Notes under the pieces: model-generated | Told to the model about the DNA's origin: nothing | Databases searched by the model: none | Seen by the model: only the letters and a program-made list of their open reading frames with translations | Translations under genes and position numbers: made by a program | NCBI RefSeq assembly: GCF_965641715.1 | Contig: NZ_OZ282453.1 | Reading direction: 5' to 3' (one strand) | From: Escherichia coli | GTDB taxonomy: Bacteria > Pseudomonadota > Gammaproteobacteria > Enterobacterales > Enterobacteriaceae | DNA length: 64,000 nt | Shown: positions 2,801-45,461 of the stretch, piece by piece | Position numbering within the stretch: the first letter of the stretch is position 1 | Layout: each line of letters begins with the position of its first letter

Positions 2801-3295
2801 TTATGAACAACTATCCATGATTTCGTTTAAGAATGAAGAGAAATCACTAAACGAACTGAATATATTTTCTGTGCCAATATTATCTCTAATTTCAAAAAAG
2901 TTACTTTTAATGTCATAAGTAAATATTGAAATGCTATCATCCCCGATCACTAACCGTTCTTGTAGATCAGGGTTTATGAAATCATCATTATTTCTATAAA
3001 ATTCATTTACGGCAAAAAGGTTTTTAACTGAAGGTTCTGGAATCGAGAGGCTAAATAATCGCAATCCATTAACTTCGAATCCATCCATTGCTCTTAAAAA
3101 AGTAAGATAATCAGGTTGATTCTTAAAAAGAATACTAACTTCATTACATAACTTCTCCAGGCAATTAGTTGAATTAGAATTAAATTCTATTTGGATTATA
3201 CTTTCAATAAATGATTCCTTGAGCGGTGCTTCAAATGGATAGTCTAAATCATTCATCATTTTTATTAATTTGTTTATTTGGGTTTTAGTCATCAT
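2801..3295 (-). CDS. putative immunity protein for the upstream HNH-like toxin domain (position of K-12 yrhA)
   Basis: 164-aa acidic ORF; its ATG overlaps the stop of the toxin-domain ORF (ATGA overlap at 3292..3295); AT-rich codon usage like the neighbouring Hcp gene. Confidence 0.5.
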   Translation of the reverse strand: MMTKTQINKLIKMMNDLDYPFEAPLKESFIESIIQIEFNSNSTNCLEKLCNEVSILFKNQPDYLTFLRAMDGFEVNGLRLFSLSIPEPSVKNLFAVNEFYRNNDDFINPDLQERLVIGDDSISIFTYDIKSNFFEIRDNIGTENIFSSFSDFSSFLNEIMDSCS

Positions 3296-9272: not shown

Positions 9273-10613
9273 GTGACTACATTAACGCTTGTTTTAACAG
9301 CAGTAGGGTCTGTTTTACTGCTGCTGTTTTTAGTCATGAAGGCGCGTATGCACGCTTTCCTGGCTTTGATGGTGGTGTCCATGGGGGCTGGCCTTTTTTC
9401 CGGTATGCCGCTCGATAAAATCGCAGCGACGATGGAAAAAGGGATGGGAGGCACCCTCGGCTTCCTGGCGGTGGTTGTCGCCCTGGGAGCTATGTTTGGC
9501 AAGATCTTACATGAAACCGGCGCAGTCGATCAGATTGCCGTCAAAATGCTCAAATCCTTCGGTCACAGCCGCGCGCATTATGCCATCGGCCTTGCGGGGC
9601 TGGTCTGTGCGCTACCGCTGTTCTTTGAAGTGGCGATTGTTCTGCTGATTAGCGTTGCTTTCTCAATGGCGCGCCACACCGGTACGAACCTGGTGAAGCT
9701 GGTAATCCCATTATTCGCAGGCGTGGCGGCAGCGGCGGCGTTCCTGGTGCCAGGGCCAGCGCCAATGCTGCTGGCATCGCAGATGAACGCCGATTTTGGC
9801 TGGATGATCCTGATTGGCCTGTGTGCGGCAATTCCGGGAATGATTATTGCCGGGCCGCTGTGGGGTAACTTCATCAGCCGTTACGTTGAGCTGCATATTC
9901 CTGATGACATCAGCGAGCCGCATCTCGGCGAAGGCAAAATGCCGTCCTTCGGATTCAGCCTGTCGCTGATCCTGCTGCCGCTGGTGCTGGTGGGGCTGAA
10001 AACCATTGCCGCGCGTTTTGTGCCAGAAGGCTCTACCGCTTACGAATGGTTCGAGTTTATTGGTCATCCGTTTACCGCGATTCTGGTTGCTTGTCTGGTA
10101 GCGATTTATGGCCTGGCAATGCGTCAGGGCATGCCAAAAGACAAAGTGATGGAGATTTGCGGTCACGCGCTGCAACCGGCGGGGATCATTCTGCTGGTGA
10201 TTGGTGCGGGCGGCGTGTTCAAACAGGTGCTGGTTGACTCTGGCGTAGGTCCGGCACTGGGCGAAGCGTTAACCGGCATGGGCCTGCCGATTGCTATCAC
10301 CTGCTTCGTGCTGGCCGCTGCAGTGCGCATCATTCAGGGTTCTGCAACCGTTGCCTGTTTAACGGCGGTGGGACTGGTGATGCCGGTTATTGAACAACTG
10401 AACTACTCCGGTGCGCAAATGGCGGCGCTGTCGATTTGTATCGCCGGTGGTTCGATTGTTGTCAGCCACGTTAACGACGCTGGTTTCTGGTTGTTCGGTA
10501 AATTTACCGGCGCGACCGAAGCCGAAACGCTGAAAACCTGGACCATGATGGAAACCATCCTCGGCACTGTCGGTGCCATCGTTGGGATGATTGCGTTCCA
10601 GCTGTTGAGTTAA
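9273..10613 (+). CDS. gntU: low-affinity gluconate:H+ symporter (GntP family)
   Basis: 446-aa polytopic membrane ORF beginning GTG (MTTLTLVLTAVGSV...); paralogous to gntT in this window. Confidence 0.9.
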   Translation: MTTLTLVLTAVGSVLLLLFLVMKARMHAFLALMVVSMGAGLFSGMPLDKIAATMEKGMGGTLGFLAVVVALGAMFGKILHETGAVDQIAVKMLKSFGHSRAHYAIGLAGLVCALPLFFEVAIVLLISVAFSMARHTGTNLVKLVIPLFAGVAAAAAFLVPGPAPMLLASQMNADFGWMILIGLCAAIPGMIIAGPLWGNFISRYVELHIPDDISEPHLGEGKMPSFGFSLSLILLPLVLVGLKTIAARFVPEGSTAYEWFEFIGHPFTAILVACLVAIYGLAMRQGMPKDKVMEICGHALQPAGIILLVIGAGGVFKQVLVDSGVGPALGEALTGMGLPIAITCFVLAAAVRIIQGSATVACLTAVGLVMPVIEQLNYSGAQMAALSICIAGGSIVVSHVNDAGFWLFGKFTGATEAETLKTWTMMETILGTVGAIVGMIAFQLLS

Positions 10614-10625
10614 TTACTGCGACAA

Positions 10626-10665
10626 ATTACTGCGAGCTTGCTCGCAGTAATTCATTTCTCTTTTC
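10626..10665 (+). terminator. gntU terminator hairpin
   Basis: Perfect inverted repeat ATTACTGCGA (10626..10635) / TCGCAGTAAT (10642..10651) followed by TCATTTCTCTTTTC. Confidence 0.6.
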
Positions 10666-10698
10666 TCCTCTCTTCATCTTTTTGATCTCTCTCGCAAA

Positions 10699-10747
10699 TT
10701 TACCTGCAAATAATCCGTTCTAATCACTGCCTAAAGATCGCAGGAGA
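10699..10747 (+). promoter_or_regulatory. candidate sigma70 promoter and RBS for the RecQ-like gene
   Basis: TTTACC (10699..10704), 16-nt spacer, TAATCA (10721..10726); AGGAGA (10742..10747) 5 nt upstream of the ATG at 10753. Confidence 0.3.
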
Positions 10748-10752
10748 TAAAG

Positions 10753-12849
10753 ATGGAAAAGCACGCAGCTGAATTGCTTTTACAGCGGATGTTAGGAAAT
10801 ACCACCGCTACTTTCAGGGAAGGGCAATGGGAAGCCATAGACGCGGTGGTGAACCAACGGCGAAAACTGCTGGTTGTCCAACGCACTGGCTGGGGGAAAA
10901 GTGCTGTGTACTTCATCGCCAGTAAAATCTTCCGCGATCGCGGCGCTGGCCCGACAATTATCATCTCTCCTTTGCTTGCCCTGATGCGTAACCAGGTTGC
11001 CGCCGCTGAACGGTTAGGTATTACGGCTGAAACGTTGAATTCTACAAACAGAGAAGAATGGCAGCGCATTAGCGATAAGTTGCTGCAAGGTGAGGTCGAT
11101 TGCTTGCTGGTTTCCCCGGAACGTTTGGCAAACCAGGACTTTATCGAAACGGTTTTATATCCTATAGCCGATCGTATTGGCTTGCTTGTGGTCGACGAGG
11201 CGCACTGCATCTCTGATTGGGGCCACGATTTTCGCCCGGATTACCGACGTATATTAGATATTTTGCGCCAACTACCTGCGAATACCCCTGTTCTGGGTAC
11301 AACCGCGACAGCGAATAACCGTGTCGTTGAGGATATCCGTCAGCAATTGGGTGACATTGTGATTCAGCGTGGAACGCTGGCTCGCGAAAGTTTGGCGCTT
11401 GATGCCTTAGTCTTAGGTGAACAGTCATCCCGTCTGGCATGGTTAGCAACGGTTATCCCTCAGTTTTCCAAATCGGGAATTGTTTATACCCTGACTACTC
11501 GCGATGCCGAACTTGTCGCCGAGTGGTTAAGGAAAAATGGTATCAGTGCATTTGCTTACTACAGCGGCGTGACTTGCGAAGGCGCGGAAGATTCTAATAC
11601 TGCCAGGGAATATCTGGAGCAGGCGTTGCTGGCAAATAAAATTAAAGTGCTGGTTGCGACAACGGCGCTGGGAATGGGCTTTGACAAACCGGATTTGGGG
11701 TTTGTTATTCATTACCAGATGCCAGGTTCGATAGTTGGTTACTACCAACAGGTGGGGCGTGCCGGTCGCGGTATCGATTCTGCTGTTGGCATACTGCTTT
11801 GCGGCAGTGAAGACCGTGCTATTCATAAATTCTTCCGTGAAAGCGCCTTTCCTGCGGAGGCGCAAATTCATGAAATACTCAACGTACTTAGCGTGAATGA
11901 CGGTCTTACCTTACGAGGCATTGAACAACGGACGAATCTCCGTTATGGGCAAATAGAAAAAGCACTGAAATTATTGGTAGCTGAAAATCCATCGCCTGTG
12001 GTGTATACCGAGAAATTATGGCGCAGAACAATTGTCAGTTTTTCTCCTGACCATGAACGAATTAACCATTTGATGAATCAGAGAAAAAGTGAGCTGGCAG
12101 ACGTTGAAAGCTATATCACGACCAAGGAGTGCAAAATGCAATTTCTGCGCCGCGCACTCGATGAGCCAGGTGCCGAACATTGTGGTAAATGTAGCAGTTG
12201 TCTTCAGCATCCGTTGTTGTCGCCCGACATTGATAGCGGCTTACTCCATGCGGCAAACTTATTTATTAAACACGCTGACCTGCCATTAAATCTCAATAAA
12301 CAGGTGGCAGCTGGGGCTTTTACGCAATACGGATTTAAAGGGAACTTGCCTGCGAGTTTACAAGGATCTACGGGGCGAATCCTTTCTCGTTGGGGAGATT
12401 CCGGGTGGGGAAAGCAGGTAGCACAGGAGAAAAAAACGGGGCGATTCAGTGATGAACTGGTGGAGGCATGTGCGGAAATGGTTCGCCAACGCTGGAATCC
12501 GCATCCTGAACCAACCTGGGTATGCTGCGTTCCTTCATTAAAGCACCTCGACCTGGTTCCTGATTTTGCCCGGCGACTGGCGGCGAAACTTGGCTTACCT
12601 TTTATTGATGCCATTGAAAAAGTCGTGGACAATCCACCGCAGAAAATGCAGCAAAACCGTTTCCACCAGTGTCAAAATCTCGACGGGGCGTTTGTGATTA
12701 CCCCTCCTTTGATGCCTGGTCCGGCGTTGCTGGTTGACGATATCGTGGATTCTGCATGGACGCTGACAGTTCTGACAGCACTGTTACGCCAGGCAGGTTG
12801 CCCGACGGTTTATCCTCTTGCCCTTGCTTCTACCTCGGTAAAAAATTGA
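10753..12849 (+). CDS. RecQ-like superfamily-2 DNA helicase fused to a C-terminal divergent phosphoribosyltransferase (ComF/GntX-like) domain; candidate toxin/effector of a two-gene module
   Basis: 698-aa ORF. Walker A QRTGWGKSAV, DEAH box LLVVDEAHCISDWGHDFR, motif VI QQVGRAGRG, Cys cluster CKMQ...HCGKCSSC, C-terminal PRTase-like fold with altered PRPP loop (LLVDDIVDSAWTL). Strong AGGAGA RBS. Confidence 0.85.
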   Translation: MEKHAAELLLQRMLGNTTATFREGQWEAIDAVVNQRRKLLVVQRTGWGKSAVYFIASKIFRDRGAGPTIIISPLLALMRNQVAAAERLGITAETLNSTNREEWQRISDKLLQGEVDCLLVSPERLANQDFIETVLYPIADRIGLLVVDEAHCISDWGHDFRPDYRRILDILRQLPANTPVLGTTATANNRVVEDIRQQLGDIVIQRGTLARESLALDALVLGEQSSRLAWLATVIPQFSKSGIVYTLTTRDAELVAEWLRKNGISAFAYYSGVTCEGAEDSNTAREYLEQALLANKIKVLVATTALGMGFDKPDLGFVIHYQMPGSIVGYYQQVGRAGRGIDSAVGILLCGSEDRAIHKFFRESAFPAEAQIHEILNVLSVNDGLTLRGIEQRTNLRYGQIEKALKLLVAENPSPVVYTEKLWRRTIVSFSPDHERINHLMNQRKSELADVESYITTKECKMQFLRRALDEPGAEHCGKCSSCLQHPLLSPDIDSGLLHAANLFIKHADLPLNLNKQVAAGAFTQYGFKGNLPASLQGSTGRILSRWGDSGWGKQVAQEKKTGRFSDELVEACAEMVRQRWNPHPEPTWVCCVPSLKHLDLVPDFARRLAAKLGLPFIDAIEKVVDNPPQKMQQNRFHQCQNLDGAFVITPPLMPGPALLVDDIVDSAWTLTVLTALLRQAGCPTVYPLALASTSVKN

Positions 12850-14051
12850 TGAATCTTTCAGCCAATGCACAAGCAACTCTCCTGCTAACCAGCGATTTTT
12901 CTCGCGCGGCGGCGAGTGAGTATAAACCTCTTAGTAATAGTGAATGGGGGAAGTTTGCATTATGGCTGAAGCACCAACGTATCAGTCCCGCCGAGCTTCT
13001 GGTGCCGCAACCGCAAGAGAAACTTACAGGCTGGAGCGATCCGCGTATTTCTCAGGAGCGTATTCTTGGCTTGCTGGCGCGTGGTCATAGTCTGGCGTTG
13101 GCGGTAGATAAGTGGCAACGCGCCGGTTTATGGATCTTAACCCGCGGAGATGCTGATTATCCCGTTCGCTTGAAAAACCGATTGCGAACGGATGCACCTC
13201 CCGTTTTATTTGGCTGCGGGAATAAAGCATTACTGCAAGCGGAAGGTATGGCGATTGTTGGCTCGCGAGATGCTCCGACTGACGATTTGCGCTATACCCA
13301 ACAACTGGCCGCGAAACTGGCCCAACAGGGGATTTGCGTTATCTCTGGTGGTGCGCGAGGTATTGATGAATGTGCAATGGCGTCGGCACTGGAGGCCGGG
13401 GGAACTGCCGTTGGCGTATTAGCTGATAGCTTGTTAAAAACGAGTACGTTAGTGAAATGGCGTGAAGGGCTTATAGCAGGCAACCTGGTGTTGATTTCGC
13501 CGTTTTACCCAGAGGTACGTTTCACCGTCGGCAATGCGATGGCGCGAAATAAATATATTTATTGCCTTGCTGAAAGCGCAATGGTTGTACGTGCGGGAAT
13601 GACCGGTGGAACGATAACCGGGGCGATGGAGGCATTAAAACATCAGTGGCTGCCTGTGCAGGTTAAACCAAATCAGGATATGCAATCAGCCAATTCACGA
13701 TTAGTAGAAAATGGGGCGTCATGGAGTGCTGAACAGGCTGAGAATGTGACGATCAGACTGCCAGACGTTCCTGGGCTGATGTATGACAGAGCACTCCGTA
13801 ACGCTCAACCAGAACTGTTTTCGCTGCATGAAGATGACGCAAATTACGCAGTAATGCCCGCGTATACGCCTGTCGATTTTTATCAACTCTTTGTGGCGGA
13901 ACTGGCGATCCTTGCAAAGGAATCGATAAGTATTGAAAGGCTGGCGTCTTGTACTGGTTTAACCATCGAACAAATTAGTGTGTGGCTGAACCGCGCAGAA
14001 GAAGAGGGAAGGGTTATCCGATTGGGCGAAGGTCATTATCAGTTCAGGTAA
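12849..14051 (+). CDS. DprA/Smf-like protein; candidate antitoxin/partner of the RecQ-PRTase protein
   Basis: ATG at 12849..12851 overlaps the helicase TGA (12847..12849); 400 aa (MNLSANAQATLLL...); Rossmann signature GMAIVGSRDAPTDDLRYTQQLAAKLAQQGICVISGGARGIDECAMASALEAGG; ORF track extends it upstream in the same frame (12756). Confidence 0.8.
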   Translation: MNLSANAQATLLLTSDFSRAAASEYKPLSNSEWGKFALWLKHQRISPAELLVPQPQEKLTGWSDPRISQERILGLLARGHSLALAVDKWQRAGLWILTRGDADYPVRLKNRLRTDAPPVLFGCGNKALLQAEGMAIVGSRDAPTDDLRYTQQLAAKLAQQGICVISGGARGIDECAMASALEAGGTAVGVLADSLLKTSTLVKWREGLIAGNLVLISPFYPEVRFTVGNAMARNKYIYCLAESAMVVRAGMTGGTITGAMEALKHQWLPVQVKPNQDMQSANSRLVENGASWSAEQAENVTIRLPDVPGLMYDRALRNAQPELFSLHEDDANYAVMPAYTPVDFYQLFVAELAILAKESISIERLASCTGLTIEQISVWLNRAEEEGRVIRLGEGHYQFR

Positions 14052-14053
14052 TA

Positions 14054-14091
14054 AAACAGGTGCCGCGTCTGGTTGTGTGCAGCACCTGTTT
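14054..14091. terminator. inverted repeat / likely bidirectional terminator between the DprA-like gene and yhgN
   Basis: AAACAGGTGC (14054..14063) / GCACCTGTTT (14082..14091), 18-nt loop. Confidence 0.4.
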
Positions 14092-14096
14092 GAACC

Positions 14097-14690
14097 TTAC
14101 CCCTTCATCCACATTCGAATGCCGTCGAGGAACATCTGGGTTGCCATCATCACCAGAATCAATCCCATCAGGCGTTCAAGTGCGTTCACCCCTTTCTCGC
14201 CCAGCAGACGTAAAAATAGCGAAGACTGTAGCAGGATGACAAAGGTGCCGCCCCAGGCCAGCAGCAGAGCAATCACCAGATGTCCCATCTGATTCGGGTA
14301 CTGATGAGACAACAACATCAGCGTGGCGAGAATAGTTGGCCCGGCGACCAGCGGAATTGCCAGCGGCACGATAAATGGCTCTTCACCTGCCGGAAGCCCG
14401 CTGCTATTTCCTGAAGCGCTGGGGAAAATCATCTTAATGGCAATTAGAAACAGAATGATGCCGCCAGAAATGGAGACGGTTTCTGCTCGCAGGCTGAGAA
14501 ATGCCAGAATTTTCTCACCCGCAAACAGGAACACCAGCATCACCAGGAGAGCAATAAGCAACTCTCGCACCATGATTGCCCGCCGTCTTTTCGGTTCAGT
14601 ATGTTTCAGTACGGACATGAAAATAGGTAGGTTTCCGAGCGGATCCATAATCAGGATCAATAAAACTGCTGCAGAAATGATTTCATTCAT
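14097..14690 (-). CDS. yhgN: MarC-family inner membrane protein
   Basis: 197-aa multi-TM ORF (MNEIISAAVLLILIMDPLGNLPIF...); adjacent to asd as in K-12 (recalled). Confidence 0.9.
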   Translation of the reverse strand: MNEIISAAVLLILIMDPLGNLPIFMSVLKHTEPKRRRAIMVRELLIALLVMLVFLFAGEKILAFLSLRAETVSISGGIILFLIAIKMIFPSASGNSSGLPAGEEPFIVPLAIPLVAGPTILATLMLLSHQYPNQMGHLVIALLLAWGGTFVILLQSSLFLRLLGEKGVNALERLMGLILVMMATQMFLDGIRMWMKG

Positions 14691-25742: not shown

Positions 25743-27260
25743 ATGGACAGAATGATGCCAAATAGAAAATGGATTTTGACCTCGCTGATAATGACTTTTT
25801 TCGGCATCCCCATACTGGCGCAATTTTTGGCAGCGGTTGTTGCCATGCTGGGTGTCGGGCTTACCGGTATTATTGAAGTTTGTAATATCCTTATCACGCC
25901 AACAATTTATCTTCTACTCAACGTCTTTATGCTGACGCTGGGGGCGATAATAATATTTTTCTCTGGTCGCGTGTGGGCCGGTGATAGCGCGCCAGAAAAC
26001 AGAGAAATAGCCGTCTGGCGGCAATGCTTTTTTCTCTTACCCGCGCTATTAACCTTGGTTGGCTGGATAATCACGCTACATCTGGCAGATTATCAATTTC
26101 GCCAGATGGGAGCTGGTTGGTTGGCAAACCTTATGCTTCCCTGGTTGGGCGTTTTTTTAGTCTCATTAGTGGGTGGTGAGTACTGGTGGATGGTCATTAT
26201 TCCCGTTGGGGCGCATATCAGTTTTTCGCTGGGATACGCCTGGCCGACCAGATATCCTTTATCCGGCACGTCCGGACTACGTTGCCGTAACTTACTCCTG
26301 TTTCTACTTATCTTACTTGGTATTGTCGCCGGGTATCAGGCCCATTTATATAAGCAGCAAAATCCTGGTGTCGGTGTACGCGAAAATATTGATATCTGGG
26401 CCTGGCGACCCGATAAACTCAATAATCGACTGACGCCGCTGCGTGGCAAACCGCAAATTCAGTTTAGGCAAAACTGGCCGCGAATCGATGGCGCCACGGC
26501 TGCGTACCCAATTTATGCTTCTGCATTTTATGCATTAAGTGTAATACCAGAGGATTTTCACGTTTGGGATTATCTGGAAAACTCTCGTACGCCAGAAGCA
26601 TATAACAAAATCGTTAAGGGCGATGCTGATATTATTTTCGTGGCGCAACCTTCCGGTGGGCAAAAAAAACGTGCAAAGGAATCTGGTGTCACTTTGGTGT
26701 ACACCCCCTTTGCCCGTGAAGCATTCGTTTTCATCGTCAATGCGGATAATCCGGTTAATTCCCTGACTGAACAACAGGTGCGTGACATTTTCAGTGGTGC
26801 AATTACCAATTGGCGTACTGTTGGCGGTAACGATCAGGAGATCCAGACCTGGCAGCGCCCGGAAGACTCTGGCAGCCAGACAGTGATGCAATCACAGGTC
26901 ATGAAAAATGTCCGCATGATCTCGCCGCAGGAAACGGAAGTGGCAAGCGTGATGGAGGGAATGATTAAAGTCGTTGCCGAATACCGTAATACAAACAACG
27001 CAATAGGCTATACCTTCCGCTATTACGCGACGCAAATGAATGCCGATAAAAATATAAAACTGCTAGCGATTAACGGTATTGCACCGACTGCGGAAAATAT
27101 TCGCAATGGCAAATATGCGTACATCGTCGATGCATTTATGGTGACGAGAGAAAATACAACGTCAGAAACACAAAAACTGGTCGAATGGTTTTTAACGCCG
27201 CAGGGGCAGAGTCTGGTAGAAGATGTGGGATATGTGCCGCTGTATCCAACAATGGAATAA
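25743..27260 (+). CDS. membrane-anchored PstS-like (PBP-like) substrate-binding protein: ~6-7 TM N-terminal domain plus C-terminal binding domain
   Basis: 505-aa ORF; N-terminal ~200 aa with several hydrophobic helices; C-terminal domain paralogous to the next gene (IIFVAQPSGGQKKRAKESGV...WQRPEDSGSQTVMQ); start codon uncertain (25743, 25752 or 25755). Confidence 0.75.
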   Translation: MDRMMPNRKWILTSLIMTFFGIPILAQFLAAVVAMLGVGLTGIIEVCNILITPTIYLLLNVFMLTLGAIIIFFSGRVWAGDSAPENREIAVWRQCFFLLPALLTLVGWIITLHLADYQFRQMGAGWLANLMLPWLGVFLVSLVGGEYWWMVIIPVGAHISFSLGYAWPTRYPLSGTSGLRCRNLLLFLLILLGIVAGYQAHLYKQQNPGVGVRENIDIWAWRPDKLNNRLTPLRGKPQIQFRQNWPRIDGATAAYPIYASAFYALSVIPEDFHVWDYLENSRTPEAYNKIVKGDADIIFVAQPSGGQKKRAKESGVTLVYTPFAREAFVFIVNADNPVNSLTEQQVRDIFSGAITNWRTVGGNDQEIQTWQRPEDSGSQTVMQSQVMKNVRMISPQETEVASVMEGMIKVVAEYRNTNNAIGYTFRYYATQMNADKNIKLLAINGIAPTAENIRNGKYAYIVDAFMVTRENTTSETQKLVEWFLTPQGQSLVEDVGYVPLYPTME

Positions 27261-27285
27261 CGCTCGAGAGAAAGGAATCAGCGAG

Positions 27286-28278
27286 ATGAATAAATTCACC
27301 GGTGTTTTACTATTAGGCACGGCGTTACTGGCGGGATGTGTCGACCGGGAAGGGTACTATAACAGCGTCAGGGAAGAAGAGAGCCATGGACTGACGTCTC
27401 TGCGGGGGCAACCTGCATTACGTTACAGCGATGATTGGTCAAGATGGCCGAGAGTGTACGGCGCTACAGCCTTATACCCGCTGTATGCCTCCGCGTATTA
27501 TAAATTAGTACCCGAGCCAAAAGATAAGGATCGAACCTCGCTGGCCTGGCAGGCGTATGGTTTGCAGCAAACCCGAACAGCTGAAGCCTACGATAGTCTG
27601 ATTAAAGGTTCCGCGACGGTTATTTTTGTTGCACAACCGTCGGAAGGACAGAAAAAACGTGCAGAAGAAGCGGGTGTTAAACTGAAATATACCGCTTTCG
27701 CCCGCGAAGCCTTTGTCTTTATCGTTGATATTAATAACCCGGTAAATTCTCTCTCTGAGCACCAGGTTAAAGATATTTTTAGCGGCAAAACTAGCCGCTG
27801 GAATAAAGTAGGTGGTAGTGACGAACATATAAAAGTCTGGCAGCGCCCTGAAGATTCTGGAAGCCAAACGATTATGAAGGGATTGGTTATGCAAGACACC
27901 CCAATGCTGCCAGCTAAAAAATCCACTGTGATTGATCTTATGGGCGGTTTAATTACTGAAGTTGCCGACTATCAAAACACGCCATCTTCCATTGGGTACA
28001 CCTTCCACTATTACGTCACTCGTATGAATGACAATATGCTCAAAATGCGCAAGCAGATTAAACTTTTGGCTATAAATGGCGTTGCGCCTACCGAGGAAAA
28101 TATCCGCAACGGCACTTATCCATACATTGTGGATGCCTATATGGTGACGCGTGAAAATCCCACGCCGGAAACGCAGAAATTTGTTGACTGGTTTATAAGT
28201 CAGCAGGGGCAACAGTTGGTAGAGGATGTGGGGTATGTGCCGCTGTATGAAGCATCCCCCGAATCATCAGGACAATAA
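27286..28278 (+). CDS. PstS-like (PBP-like) substrate-binding lipoprotein, paralogue of the upstream gene
   Basis: Frame of ORF 27223..28278; start MNKFTGVLLLGTALLAGC (lipobox LLAGC) at 27286 after AAAGGAA; 330 aa; shares VIFVAQPSEGQKKRAEEAGV...WQRPEDSGSQTIMKG with the upstream gene. Confidence 0.8.
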   Translation: MNKFTGVLLLGTALLAGCVDREGYYNSVREEESHGLTSLRGQPALRYSDDWSRWPRVYGATALYPLYASAYYKLVPEPKDKDRTSLAWQAYGLQQTRTAEAYDSLIKGSATVIFVAQPSEGQKKRAEEAGVKLKYTAFAREAFVFIVDINNPVNSLSEHQVKDIFSGKTSRWNKVGGSDEHIKVWQRPEDSGSQTIMKGLVMQDTPMLPAKKSTVIDLMGGLITEVADYQNTPSSIGYTFHYYVTRMNDNMLKMRKQIKLLAINGVAPTEENIRNGTYPYIVDAYMVTRENPTPETQKFVDWFISQQGQQLVEDVGYVPLYEASPESSGQ

Positions 28279-28412
28279 TGATGAATATAATCAGACTTTA
28301 TATTTATCCGTTATTTCTCGGCTTTGTTATTGTGCCGTTGTTGGTGTGGCCGATGGTGGTTGCGCTGGCTGCTTGTATTATCGTTGACAAAGTGCACTTT
28401 GTTCATGCCTGA
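28278..28412 (+). CDS. candidate 44-aa hydrophobic small protein, translationally coupled to the lipoprotein gene
   Basis: ATG at 28278 overlaps the TAA of the upstream gene (TAATG); MMNIIRLYIYPLFLGFVIVPLLVWPMVVALAACIIVDKVHFVHA; below the ORF-track size cut-off; no RBS beyond coupling. Confidence 0.3.
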   Translation: MMNIIRLYIYPLFLGFVIVPLLVWPMVVALAACIIVDKVHFVHA

Positions 28413-35212: not shown

Positions 35213-37578
<2,366 letters not shown>

Positions 37579-45440: not shown

Positions 45441-45461
45441 GCCGGATGCGATGCATCCGGC
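45441..45461. terminator. hairpin between convergent malQ and gntT
   Basis: GCCGGATGC (45441..45449) / GCATCCGGC (45453..45461), loop GAT. Confidence 0.45.

Follow-up and report, generated by a model that had tools for sequence, protein, structure and literature searches.

Two genes between gntU and yhgN of Escherichia coli are very probably the rqlHI operon of the PsyrTA toxin-antitoxin and defence family

Introduction

What do the two genes lying between gntU and yhgN encode in the window of Escherichia coli DNA analysed here (the whole stretch of 64,000 nucleotides), and do they serve defence, addiction or DNA processing? An earlier note, made from the sequence alone, had described them as an inserted module, a RecQ-type helicase fused to a phosphoribosyltransferase (PRTase) and followed by a DprA-like protein, and had taken the module for an accessory toxin-antitoxin or anti-phage system. 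We find that the two genes are, with little doubt, the known rqlHI operon, E. coli's representative of the PsyrTA family of toxin-antitoxin and defence modules. The module is not new: a genetic dissection in E. coli dates from 2015, and both PADLOC and DefenseFinder call it automatically.

Results

Two co-oriented genes occupy the + strand between gntU and yhgN. The first, rqlH (= psyrT; 10753..12849), is predicted to encode a RecQ-like SF2 helicase of 698 aa with a C-terminal PRTase domain, the putative toxin according to family and literature; the second, rqlI (= psyrA; 12849..14051), is predicted to encode a DprA-like protein of 400 aa, the putative antitoxin on the same grounds. As the earlier note had read them, the two ORFs overlap in the motif TGATG (12847..12851, + strand), in which the end of rqlH meets the rqlI ATG at 12849, an arrangement consistent with translational coupling, and a ribosome-binding site AGGAG (10742..10746, + strand) lies 6 nt upstream of the rqlH ATG. 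The RefSeq pipeline annotates a longer rqlI (431 aa, start at 12756); the 400-aa form aligns over residues 1-400 to positions 1-397 of the 398 of the PsyrA profile and equals the published length of RqlI. The AGGAG belongs to the AT-rich leader/promoter region of the operon (10653..10752, + strand; GC is 0.40 for the spacer 10614..10752), in which no sigma-70 consensus was found on the + strand and no promoter was identified.

The two hairpins said to bracket the pair were both recovered. The left one (10625..10652, + strand; 12-bp stem, 4-nt loop, -16.6 kcal/mol, z = -4.6) is followed by a T-rich tract and is likely the gntU terminator of the module haplotype, in place of a different terminator hairpin in the K-12 spacer. 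The right one (14054..14091) lies between the convergent rqlI and yhgN and was folded on both strands. On the + strand the fold (-22.4 kcal/mol, z = -3.3) has no clear U tract behind it; on the - strand (-25.1 kcal/mol, z = -6.05) a U tract follows. Because the U tract is present on the - strand only, this hairpin fits best as the yhgN terminator on that strand; it may also act bidirectionally and end the rqlHI transcript.

Profile searches, which the earlier note had proposed, returned full-length and top-scoring matches of both proteins to the PsyrTA models of PADLOC. Residues 3-697 of RqlH align to positions 5-687 of the 689-position PsyrT profile (E = 0, 1065.9 bits), and the PsyrA profile matched RqlI over its full length (1.1e-202, 671.4 bits). 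The helicase-PRTase fusion proposed for gene 1 and the DprA signature proposed for gene 2 were likewise borne out. The helicase core of RqlH (aa 20-340; 10810..11772, + strand) contains Pfam DEAD (23-194, 4.9e-25) and Helicase_C (239-339, 9.5e-13), is matched by RecQ cores in the PDB at 4e-53, and includes the Walker A lysine K49 (10897..10899, + strand) and the DEAH motif 148-151 with D148 (11194..11205, + strand), K49 and D148 being invariant in five homologues (alignment A1). A cluster of four cysteines, C460, C477, C480 and C483 (12130..12201, + strand), all invariant in the same alignment, forms a RecQ-type zinc-binding motif weakly recognised by Pfam RecQ_Zn_bind (443-484, E = 0.0031). 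The PRTase domain (aa 509-698; 12277..12846, + strand) gives a weak Pfam Pribosyltran match (605-683, E = 0.0087), can be aligned with structures of adenine PRTases over the VDD(I/V)V motif, and carries the PRPP-binding loop DDIVDSAWT (aa 662-670; 12736..12762, + strand), in which alignment A1 shows no variation at D662, D663, V665, D666, S667, W669 and T670. The catalytic residues of RqlH are unchanged among homologues at 50-62% identity. It should be noted that RefSeq gives the name 'ComF family protein' to a truncated copy of the PRTase part of RqlH.

RqlI contains a DprA/SLOG Rossmann-like domain (aa 89-292; 13113..13724, + strand) matched by Pfam DNA_processg_A (4.7e-51) and LDcluster4 (4.4e-11); its PDB matches are DprA chains (2e-11) and ShosA (4e-7). 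The C-terminal tail (about aa 340-400; 13866..14048, + strand) is predicted to form a helix-turn-helix, with a faint match to Pfam HTH_26 (E = 0.35), and alignment A2 shows W379, L380 and G387 to be conserved. In F11, truncations showed that this tail is not needed for antitoxin activity (PMC4670107).

RqlH-RqlI of E. coli F11 (EcF11_3932 and EcF11_3933; PMC4670107) comes from the same species and forms the same two-gene operon with rqlH upstream, and its proteins match those of the window in length (698 and 400 aa) and in the numbering of K49, D148 and DIVD663. Orthology to the F11 pair is supported by lengths, residue numbering and the strain 131 allele; the window holds a different allele from the strain 131 copy taken for comparison. 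The architecture of PsyrTA, the Pseudomonas syringae toxin-antitoxin pair (Sberro 2013; PADLOC PDLC03928 and PDLC03927), is that of the window, with the helicase-PRTase toxin encoded first and the DprA-like antitoxin second; by contrast with the family, the E. coli chromosomal copy stands alone between housekeeping genes, outside defence islands and mobile elements. The RqlH of M. smegmatis (MSMEG_5935) joins helicase and PRTase in the same way and shares 41% identity with F11 RqlH along the full length; it is a biochemically proven 3'-5' helicase whose PRTase domain is dispensable for helicase activity. Unlike the window pair, it occurs without any RqlI partner. RqlH without RqlI is found in many bacteria, so that toxin-antitoxin pairing may not be how the family works in every case.

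The gntU-yhgN site was surveyed in 5,426 complete E. coli genomes. The K-12 gap is 56 bp, as short as the earlier note had stated, and K-12 lacks the pair. This spacer was found in 3,774 of the genomes and the 3.48-kb rqlHI module in 1,650 (about 30%), in every case on the chromosome, and neither other cargo nor mobility genes were found at the site in any genome of the survey. In the window, 3,483 bp replace all 56 bp; the exchange starts immediately after the gntU stop and runs right up to the yhgN stop, and neither spacer holds remnants of the other. The site is a two-state polymorphism, and the module is accessory, as had been proposed, single-site and chromosomal. The description of an 'inserted' module holds in so far as the spacer is replaced; an insertion event is not supported by a site with two states and no remnants either way.

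The rqlHI copy is enriched in phylogroup E2. The window allele is 100% identical to that of strain TUM13936 and 99.7-99.8% identical to those of O55:H7 and O157:H7 strains. An E. coli genome labelled 'strain 131' (ST131-type) carries at the same site an allele with 97.4% (RqlH) and 99.3% (RqlI) protein identity; the rqlH nucleotides of the two differ by about 5%, and alleles diverge most in the upstream spacer, where the window and the ST131-type allele are 88.8% identical.

In other gammaproteobacteria, copies 60-69% identical always keep the partner gene. Among 17 gammaproteobacterial loci, rqlI lies directly 3' of rqlH in 13 of the 13 that reach past the rqlH end, the toxin-antitoxin gene order being the same in every related locus that extends far enough. 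Several of these relatives occupy a defence context, within type I restriction-modification operons or next to BREX: the copy on an E. coli IncF plasmid sits between hsdS and hsdR, the Kluyvera and Providencia copies are located downstream of hsdM and an ORF in the hsdS position (in Kluyvera with hsdR following), and an Acinetobacter plasmid copy adjoins the BREX gene pglX.

That gene 1 is toxic and gene 2 neutralises it, which the earlier note had put forward for testing, is already published for the F11 allele (PMC4670107), and the following results come from that work. When its partner RqlI is missing, RqlH induces the SOS response and mutagenesis in E. coli, makes the cells filament and arrests their growth. 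Toxicity requires the C-terminal PRTase and D663 of the PRPP loop, since it is lost with the 509-690 deletion or D663A; the helicase-dead K49A and D148A proteins are still toxic, with low viable counts and more SOS induction and filamentation. RqlI neutralises RqlH and is recovered with it in co-immunoprecipitation, but no longer once the residues beyond 509 are deleted. Both genes are co-transcribed in F11 (RT-PCR), and the double deletion of rqlHI has no measurable fitness cost in this strain. The presence of RqlH is the sole reason why extraintestinal pathogenic E. coli (ExPEC), the group to which F11 belongs, need RqlI for fitness in the gut and in infection models.

As for phages, a PsyrTA homologue scored as defensive in the Millman 2022 screen, and the psyrA deletion could not be transformed (bioRxiv 10.1101/2022.05.11.491447), which implies that the toxin alone is toxic and is neutralised by its partner. 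The native PsyrTA of E. coli NILS69 gave no phage phenotype, either on deletion or on expression in K-12 (10 phages), where expression produced a growth defect only. The NILS69 result, the double deletion in F11 with no measurable cost and the position of the E. coli copy away from defence islands and mobile elements all count against the toxin-antitoxin and defence reading. The first of these favours a reading that we regard as unlikely, though well worth keeping in view, namely that rqlHI is not mainly anti-phage in E. coli. The operon would then stabilise itself as an addiction module, or its products would cooperate in DNA processing, the PRTase marking a base and RqlI and the helicase resolving the mark (the Fig 10 model of Russell & Mulvey, PMC4670107), with toxicity as a by-product of removing one partner. 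In keeping with this reading, the site is strictly two-state, without alternative cargo or mobility genes; module alleles are 94.8-98.9% identical, near the 97-99% of the core flanks, which suggests long vertical residence; the GC of the module (0.50) is near the window average (0.51); and the dependence of ExPEC on RqlI arises only from RqlH. Against it stand the phage defence scored for the PsyrTA homologue, the close relatives within type I restriction-modification operons and beside BREX, and the small panel of phages used with NILS69; the absence of a detectable cost of the double deletion argues against a needed housekeeping task.

It is very improbable that the pair represents a second housekeeping RecQ helicase and a DprA paralogue, acting in recombination repair or DNA uptake. 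RqlH does pass the broad subfamily model recQ_fam of NCBIfam (253.9 bits, cutoff 219.8), RqlI has a clear DprA domain and 3'-5' helicase activity is known for the M. smegmatis orthologue. However, the pair is missing from 70% of E. coli genomes, K-12 included, and both proteins fall far below the cutoffs of the dedicated models: 298 versus 640.2 bits and 226 versus 1015 for the RecQ equivalogs TIGR01389 and PRK11057, and 102 versus 191 bits and 79.9 versus 495 for canonical DprA (TIGR00732 and PRK10736). In addition, gene 1 alone is genotoxic in F11, and transformation was undetectable in the ExPEC isolates tested (PMC4670107). Distribution and score cutoffs already contradict such a housekeeping role.

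Finally, a ShosTA module or a stray DpdF helicase of the 7-deazaguanine Dpd system has next to no probability and both identities were rejected: the ShosA profile matches only residues 85-266 of gene 2 (2.7e-27, 93.8 bits) and is outscored by PsyrA, no ShosT model is among the best 25 of 39 PADLOC matches for gene 1, all of helicase type, and gene 1 carries the RecQ-like helicase that ShosT lacks, while the many DpdF models of PADLOC matching gene 1 (best 5e-93) cover the shared RecQ-like core or short fragments, the NCBIfam DpdF model NF041063 gives 150.4 bits for a cutoff of 550, and the neighbours are gntU and yhgN, with no other dpd genes flanking the pair. Of the two architectures named in the earlier note, PsyrTA/RqlHI thus stands and ShosTA does not.

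Discussion

The statement of the earlier note that the mechanisms of such modules are unresolved still holds for PsyrTA; for ShosTA it has been overtaken by structural papers of 2025 and 2026 (PMC11961720, PMC12961424). ShosTA is probably the best available mechanistic guide for RqlHI: both systems set a DprA-like antitoxin against a PRTase toxin whose action depends on PRPP binding and leads to DNA damage and filamentation. The N-terminal domain of ShosT is a hydrolase/pyrophosphatase where RqlH has its RecQ-like helicase.

In uninfected cells, RqlI would keep the PRTase domain inactive on a helicase able to travel along DNA. Upon phage infection this antidote would be lost or titrated, by analogy with ShosTA perhaps through the shut-off of host transcription, or through phage single-stranded DNA or replication proteins engaging the DprA-like protein. 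The freed PRTase would spend PRPP to modify a nucleobase, a component of the nucleotide pool or DNA, and this modification would block host and phage replication alike, resulting in abortive infection or growth arrest. The trigger model of ShosTA may not transfer to RqlHI, because ShosA neutralises ShosT without binding it, acting through RecA and single-stranded DNA, whereas RqlI binds RqlH and co-immunoprecipitates with its PRTase domain.

A more speculative proposal, to which we give only a small chance, is that rqlHI is not a suicide module but a pair of enzymes tracking along DNA. The RecQ-like motor would carry a PRTase that places phosphoribose from PRPP on a DNA base or a replication-associated nucleotide, and RqlI would direct the RecA-dependent processing of this mark. 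If true, DNA would here be modified in a new way, serving either against foreign DNA or during DNA stress at low oxygen, and the proposal could explain the long-lived two-state polymorphism at a single site between housekeeping genes together with the lack of a simple phage phenotype.

With rqlHI being very probably a member of a family already studied, the locus matters little as a discovery. The population picture, in which exactly two haplotypes occur, 30% of genomes carry the module and the single fixed site is free of mobility genes, is a modest but useful refinement.

The gntU-yhgN interval carries a PsyrTA (RqlHI) module

Between gntU (9273..10613, plus strand) and yhgN (14097..14690, minus strand), the window contains two co-oriented ORFs. 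Gene 1 (rqlH, 10753..12849, plus strand) encodes a 698-aa protein and has an AGGAG 6 nt before its ATG, and gene 2 (rqlI, 12849..14051, plus strand) encodes 400 aa, the TGA of the former overlapping the ATG of the latter in a TGATG at 12847..12851. On an identical locus, RefSeq places the start of the DprA-like gene at an earlier in-frame ATG (12756), giving a 431-aa product and a 94-nt overlap with rqlH. Since the PsyrA profile covers the 400-aa form from one end to the other and the published RqlI has this same length, ATG 12849 is favoured as the start of rqlI, and the RefSeq start is probably too long.

To these ORFs, the PADLOC profiles gave nearly full-length matches: gene 1 matched PsyrT with E = 0 and 1065.9 bits (residues 3-697 against profile positions 5-687 of 689) and gene 2 matched PsyrA with E = 1.1e-202 (residues 1-400 against positions 1-397 of 398). 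In Pfam, gene 1 matched DEAD (4.9e-25) and Helicase_C (9.5e-13) and, weakly, the RecQ zinc-binding and Pribosyltran families, the latter at residues 605-683, while gene 2 matched DNA_processg_A (4.7e-51) and a SLOG family (4.4e-11). Sequence searches of the PDB returned RecQ-type cores (4e-53), DprA (2e-11) and ShosA (4e-7), and for the phosphoribosyltransferase (PRTase) part only adenine PRTases at a marginal E = 0.14, in an alignment spanning the PRPP loop VDDIVDSAWT; these searches found no structure of PsyrT or PsyrA.

Other assignments were considered. The NCBIfam RecQ family model was passed by gene 1 (253.9 bits for a cutoff of 219.8), but a canonical RecQ was rejected because the score lies far under the RecQ equivalog cutoffs; likewise, gene 2 falls under both cutoffs for a canonical DprA. 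The earlier note had proposed a toxin-antitoxin or anti-phage module of the PsyrTA/RqlHI or ShosTA type, and the PsyrT and PsyrA scores uphold the first of these names, whereas ShosTA is ruled out by the PADLOC scores and by the context. DpdF was dismissed for gene 1, which scores far under the NCBIfam DpdF cutoff in a context that also argues against it. The module is PsyrTA/RqlHI, a system already known, studied in E. coli and called by standard defence-system annotation.

Both hairpins noticed earlier were borne out by folding. The left one (10625..10652, plus strand) forms a stem of 12 bp (z = -4.6) followed by a T-rich tail; the right one (14054..14091) folds on both strands (z = -3.3 on the plus strand and -6.05 on the minus strand), with a U tract behind it on the minus strand only. 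A sigma-70 promoter scan of the 139-bp spacer upstream of gene 1 gave no candidate that passed. Immediately 3' of the gntU stop codon, 10613..10652 holds ATTACTGCGA twice in direct orientation (from 10615 and from 10628) and a third time in inverted orientation, which gives rise to the hairpin; judged from the sequence, these repeats may stem from a small duplication of local sequence at the module's left edge. The left spacer is also the part of the module that diverges most between alleles (88.8% identity).

The module is one of two states of the site in E. coli

In MG1655, the gntU-yhgN spacer is 56 bp long and carries its own, unrelated terminator hairpin. In the window, 3,483 bp stand in place of all 56 bp, precisely from stop codon to stop codon, and no trace of the K-12 spacer was found inside them. 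The two-gene module at gntU-yhgN described earlier is confirmed in its ORFs, their overlap, the hairpins and the short K-12 spacer. The absence of both rqlH and rqlI from K-12 had been reported previously (PMC4670107).

To place these two arrangements in the population, 5,426 complete E. coli genomes were searched, 5,424 of which gave a match at gntU-yhgN. The 3,483-bp module was present in 1,650 genomes (1,641 at >= 80% coverage) and the K-12-type 56-bp spacer in 3,774; as together they account for all 5,424 matching genomes, gntU-yhgN exists in two states, without alternative cargo. The module is chromosomal in all carriers, at 95.9-100% identity. The window allele is identical to that of TUM13936 and 99.7-99.8% identical to those of O55:H7 and O157:H7 strains, a closeness that agrees with published data in which PsyrTA is enriched in phylogroup E2. 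An E. coli genome labelled "strain 131" has an allele at the same site, with protein identities of 97.4% for RqlH and 99.3% for RqlI; the corresponding nucleotide identities are 94.8% and 98.9%, compared with 97-99% for the flanking core genes. The GC content of the module is 0.50 versus 0.51 for the window, and no mobility genes were found at the locus. The module looks like an old presence/absence polymorphism rather than a recent insertion. A degenerate-pattern scan found no gntU-yhgN-flanked module in other Escherichia or enterobacterial species, an absence that is weak evidence as the scan required two intact peptide motifs and covered one genome per species. The module may have been gained here or lost from K-12-type strains.

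Nine of the 1,650 module carriers fall below 80% coverage. In the clinical isolate E. coli NRZ94505 (NZ_OZ501598.1, locus L006 1..5586), an ISEcp1-blaCTX-M-15 transposition unit cuts rqlH; the PRTase-encoding 3' end of the gene remains, annotated "ComF family protein", and rqlI is intact. This locus is a toxin knock-out of natural origin.

Relatives of the pair in other genomes

The same scan, again with one genome per species, recovered 17 gammaproteobacterial loci with RqlH identities of 60-69%, none of them flanked by gntU, yhgN or asd and none from another Escherichia species. RqlI was encoded directly 3' of rqlH in all 13 loci that reach beyond the end of rqlH. Walker A, DEAH, the four zinc-binding cysteines, NLDGAF and the DD.VDS.WT PRPP loop were invariant in alignments of the relatives.

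Several of the relatives lie in defence contexts. In Kluyvera cryocrescens (L021 4525..14444), the pair lies within a type I restriction-modification operon, in the order hsdM, an ORF at the hsdS position (for which no family match was found), psyrTA and hsdR. An E. coli IncF plasmid (L007 694..10127) has the pair 3' of hsdM, annotated between hsdS and hsdR, and in Providencia rettgeri (L019 1975..8799) it lies 3' of hsdM and hsdS, with no hsdR match before the locus end. These three pairs are 60-67% identical to that of the window. Since hsdR comes after the pair in both Kluyvera and the IncF plasmid, nesting of psyrTA in type I restriction-modification operons recurs. On an Acinetobacter plasmid the pair comes after the BREX gene pglX, and on a Nostoc plasmid after parAB. 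A phage-borne location was rejected: when phage genomes were searched with RqlI, the sole match was partial, DprA-like and in one Gordonia phage.

Other differences from K-12 in the window

At 35867..37203, a 1,337-bp IS4-family element, which we take to be IS186-like, splits rtcA, a gene intact in K-12. It has terminal inverted repeats CATAAGCGCTAACTTAAGGGTTG, encodes a 372-aa transposase on the minus strand (36037..37155) and is surrounded by a 12-bp target duplication, GGGAGTTTTCCC, at 35855..35866 and 37204..37215. The glpD-glgP interval holds two tandem genes for PstS-family substrate-binding proteins (25743..28278; 505 and 351 aa), both scoring about 120 bits, under the 206.6-bit cutoff. 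The extra DNA spans 25978..28383, where K-12 has 81 bp and a small ORF, yzgL, that seems to have been left behind by a deletion. In K-12, yrhA is split by an IS1E; the window lacks this element at 2906..2914, leaving the yrhA region uninterrupted, and between gntT and malQ, at 45454, K-12 has 64 additional bases.

Proposed mechanism and possible role in defence

The E. coli counterpart has been studied by Russell & Mulvey in the extraintestinal pathogenic strain F11, whose RqlH and RqlI are 698 and 400 aa long and whose genes are co-transcribed (PMC4670107). The residues mutated there (K49, D148 and DIVD663) have their counterparts at K49, D148 and D663 in the RqlH of the window. In F11, RqlH without RqlI leads to SOS response, filamentation, mutagenesis and growth arrest; toxicity is abolished by deletion of the PRTase domain or by D663A, helicase-dead mutants are still toxic, and co-immunoprecipitation of RqlI with RqlH requires the PRTase domain (PMC4670107). 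PsyrT, recovered in the toxin-antitoxin screen of Sberro, is orthologous to RqlH (PMC4670107).

Our literature search found no paper dedicated to the PsyrTA mechanism, for which the closest guide is ShosTA. There, the toxicity of ShosT depends on its binding of PRPP, ShosA has single-stranded DNA and RecA as binding partners, and the triggers proposed are transcription shut-off by T7 Gp0.7 and phage single-stranded DNA (PMC11961720, PMC12961424). The parallel is not complete, as RqlI binds RqlH but no such binding links ShosA to ShosT. Our inference for PsyrTA is that RqlI probably silences the PRTase domain carried by a helicase that translocates on DNA. On infection, RqlI would be removed or titrated, and the PRTase would then use PRPP, with damage to DNA or nucleotide metabolism.

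PsyrTA, "also called RqlHI", is among the phage-defensive toxin-antitoxin systems of Millman et al., who could not obtain a psyrA deletion (bioRxiv 10.1101/2022.05.11.491447). Against a defence role of the E. coli copy, the PsyrTA of E. coli NILS69 has been published as giving no phage phenotype in its native host and only a growth defect when expressed in K-12, and the rqlHI double deletion in F11 had no measured cost (PMC4670107).
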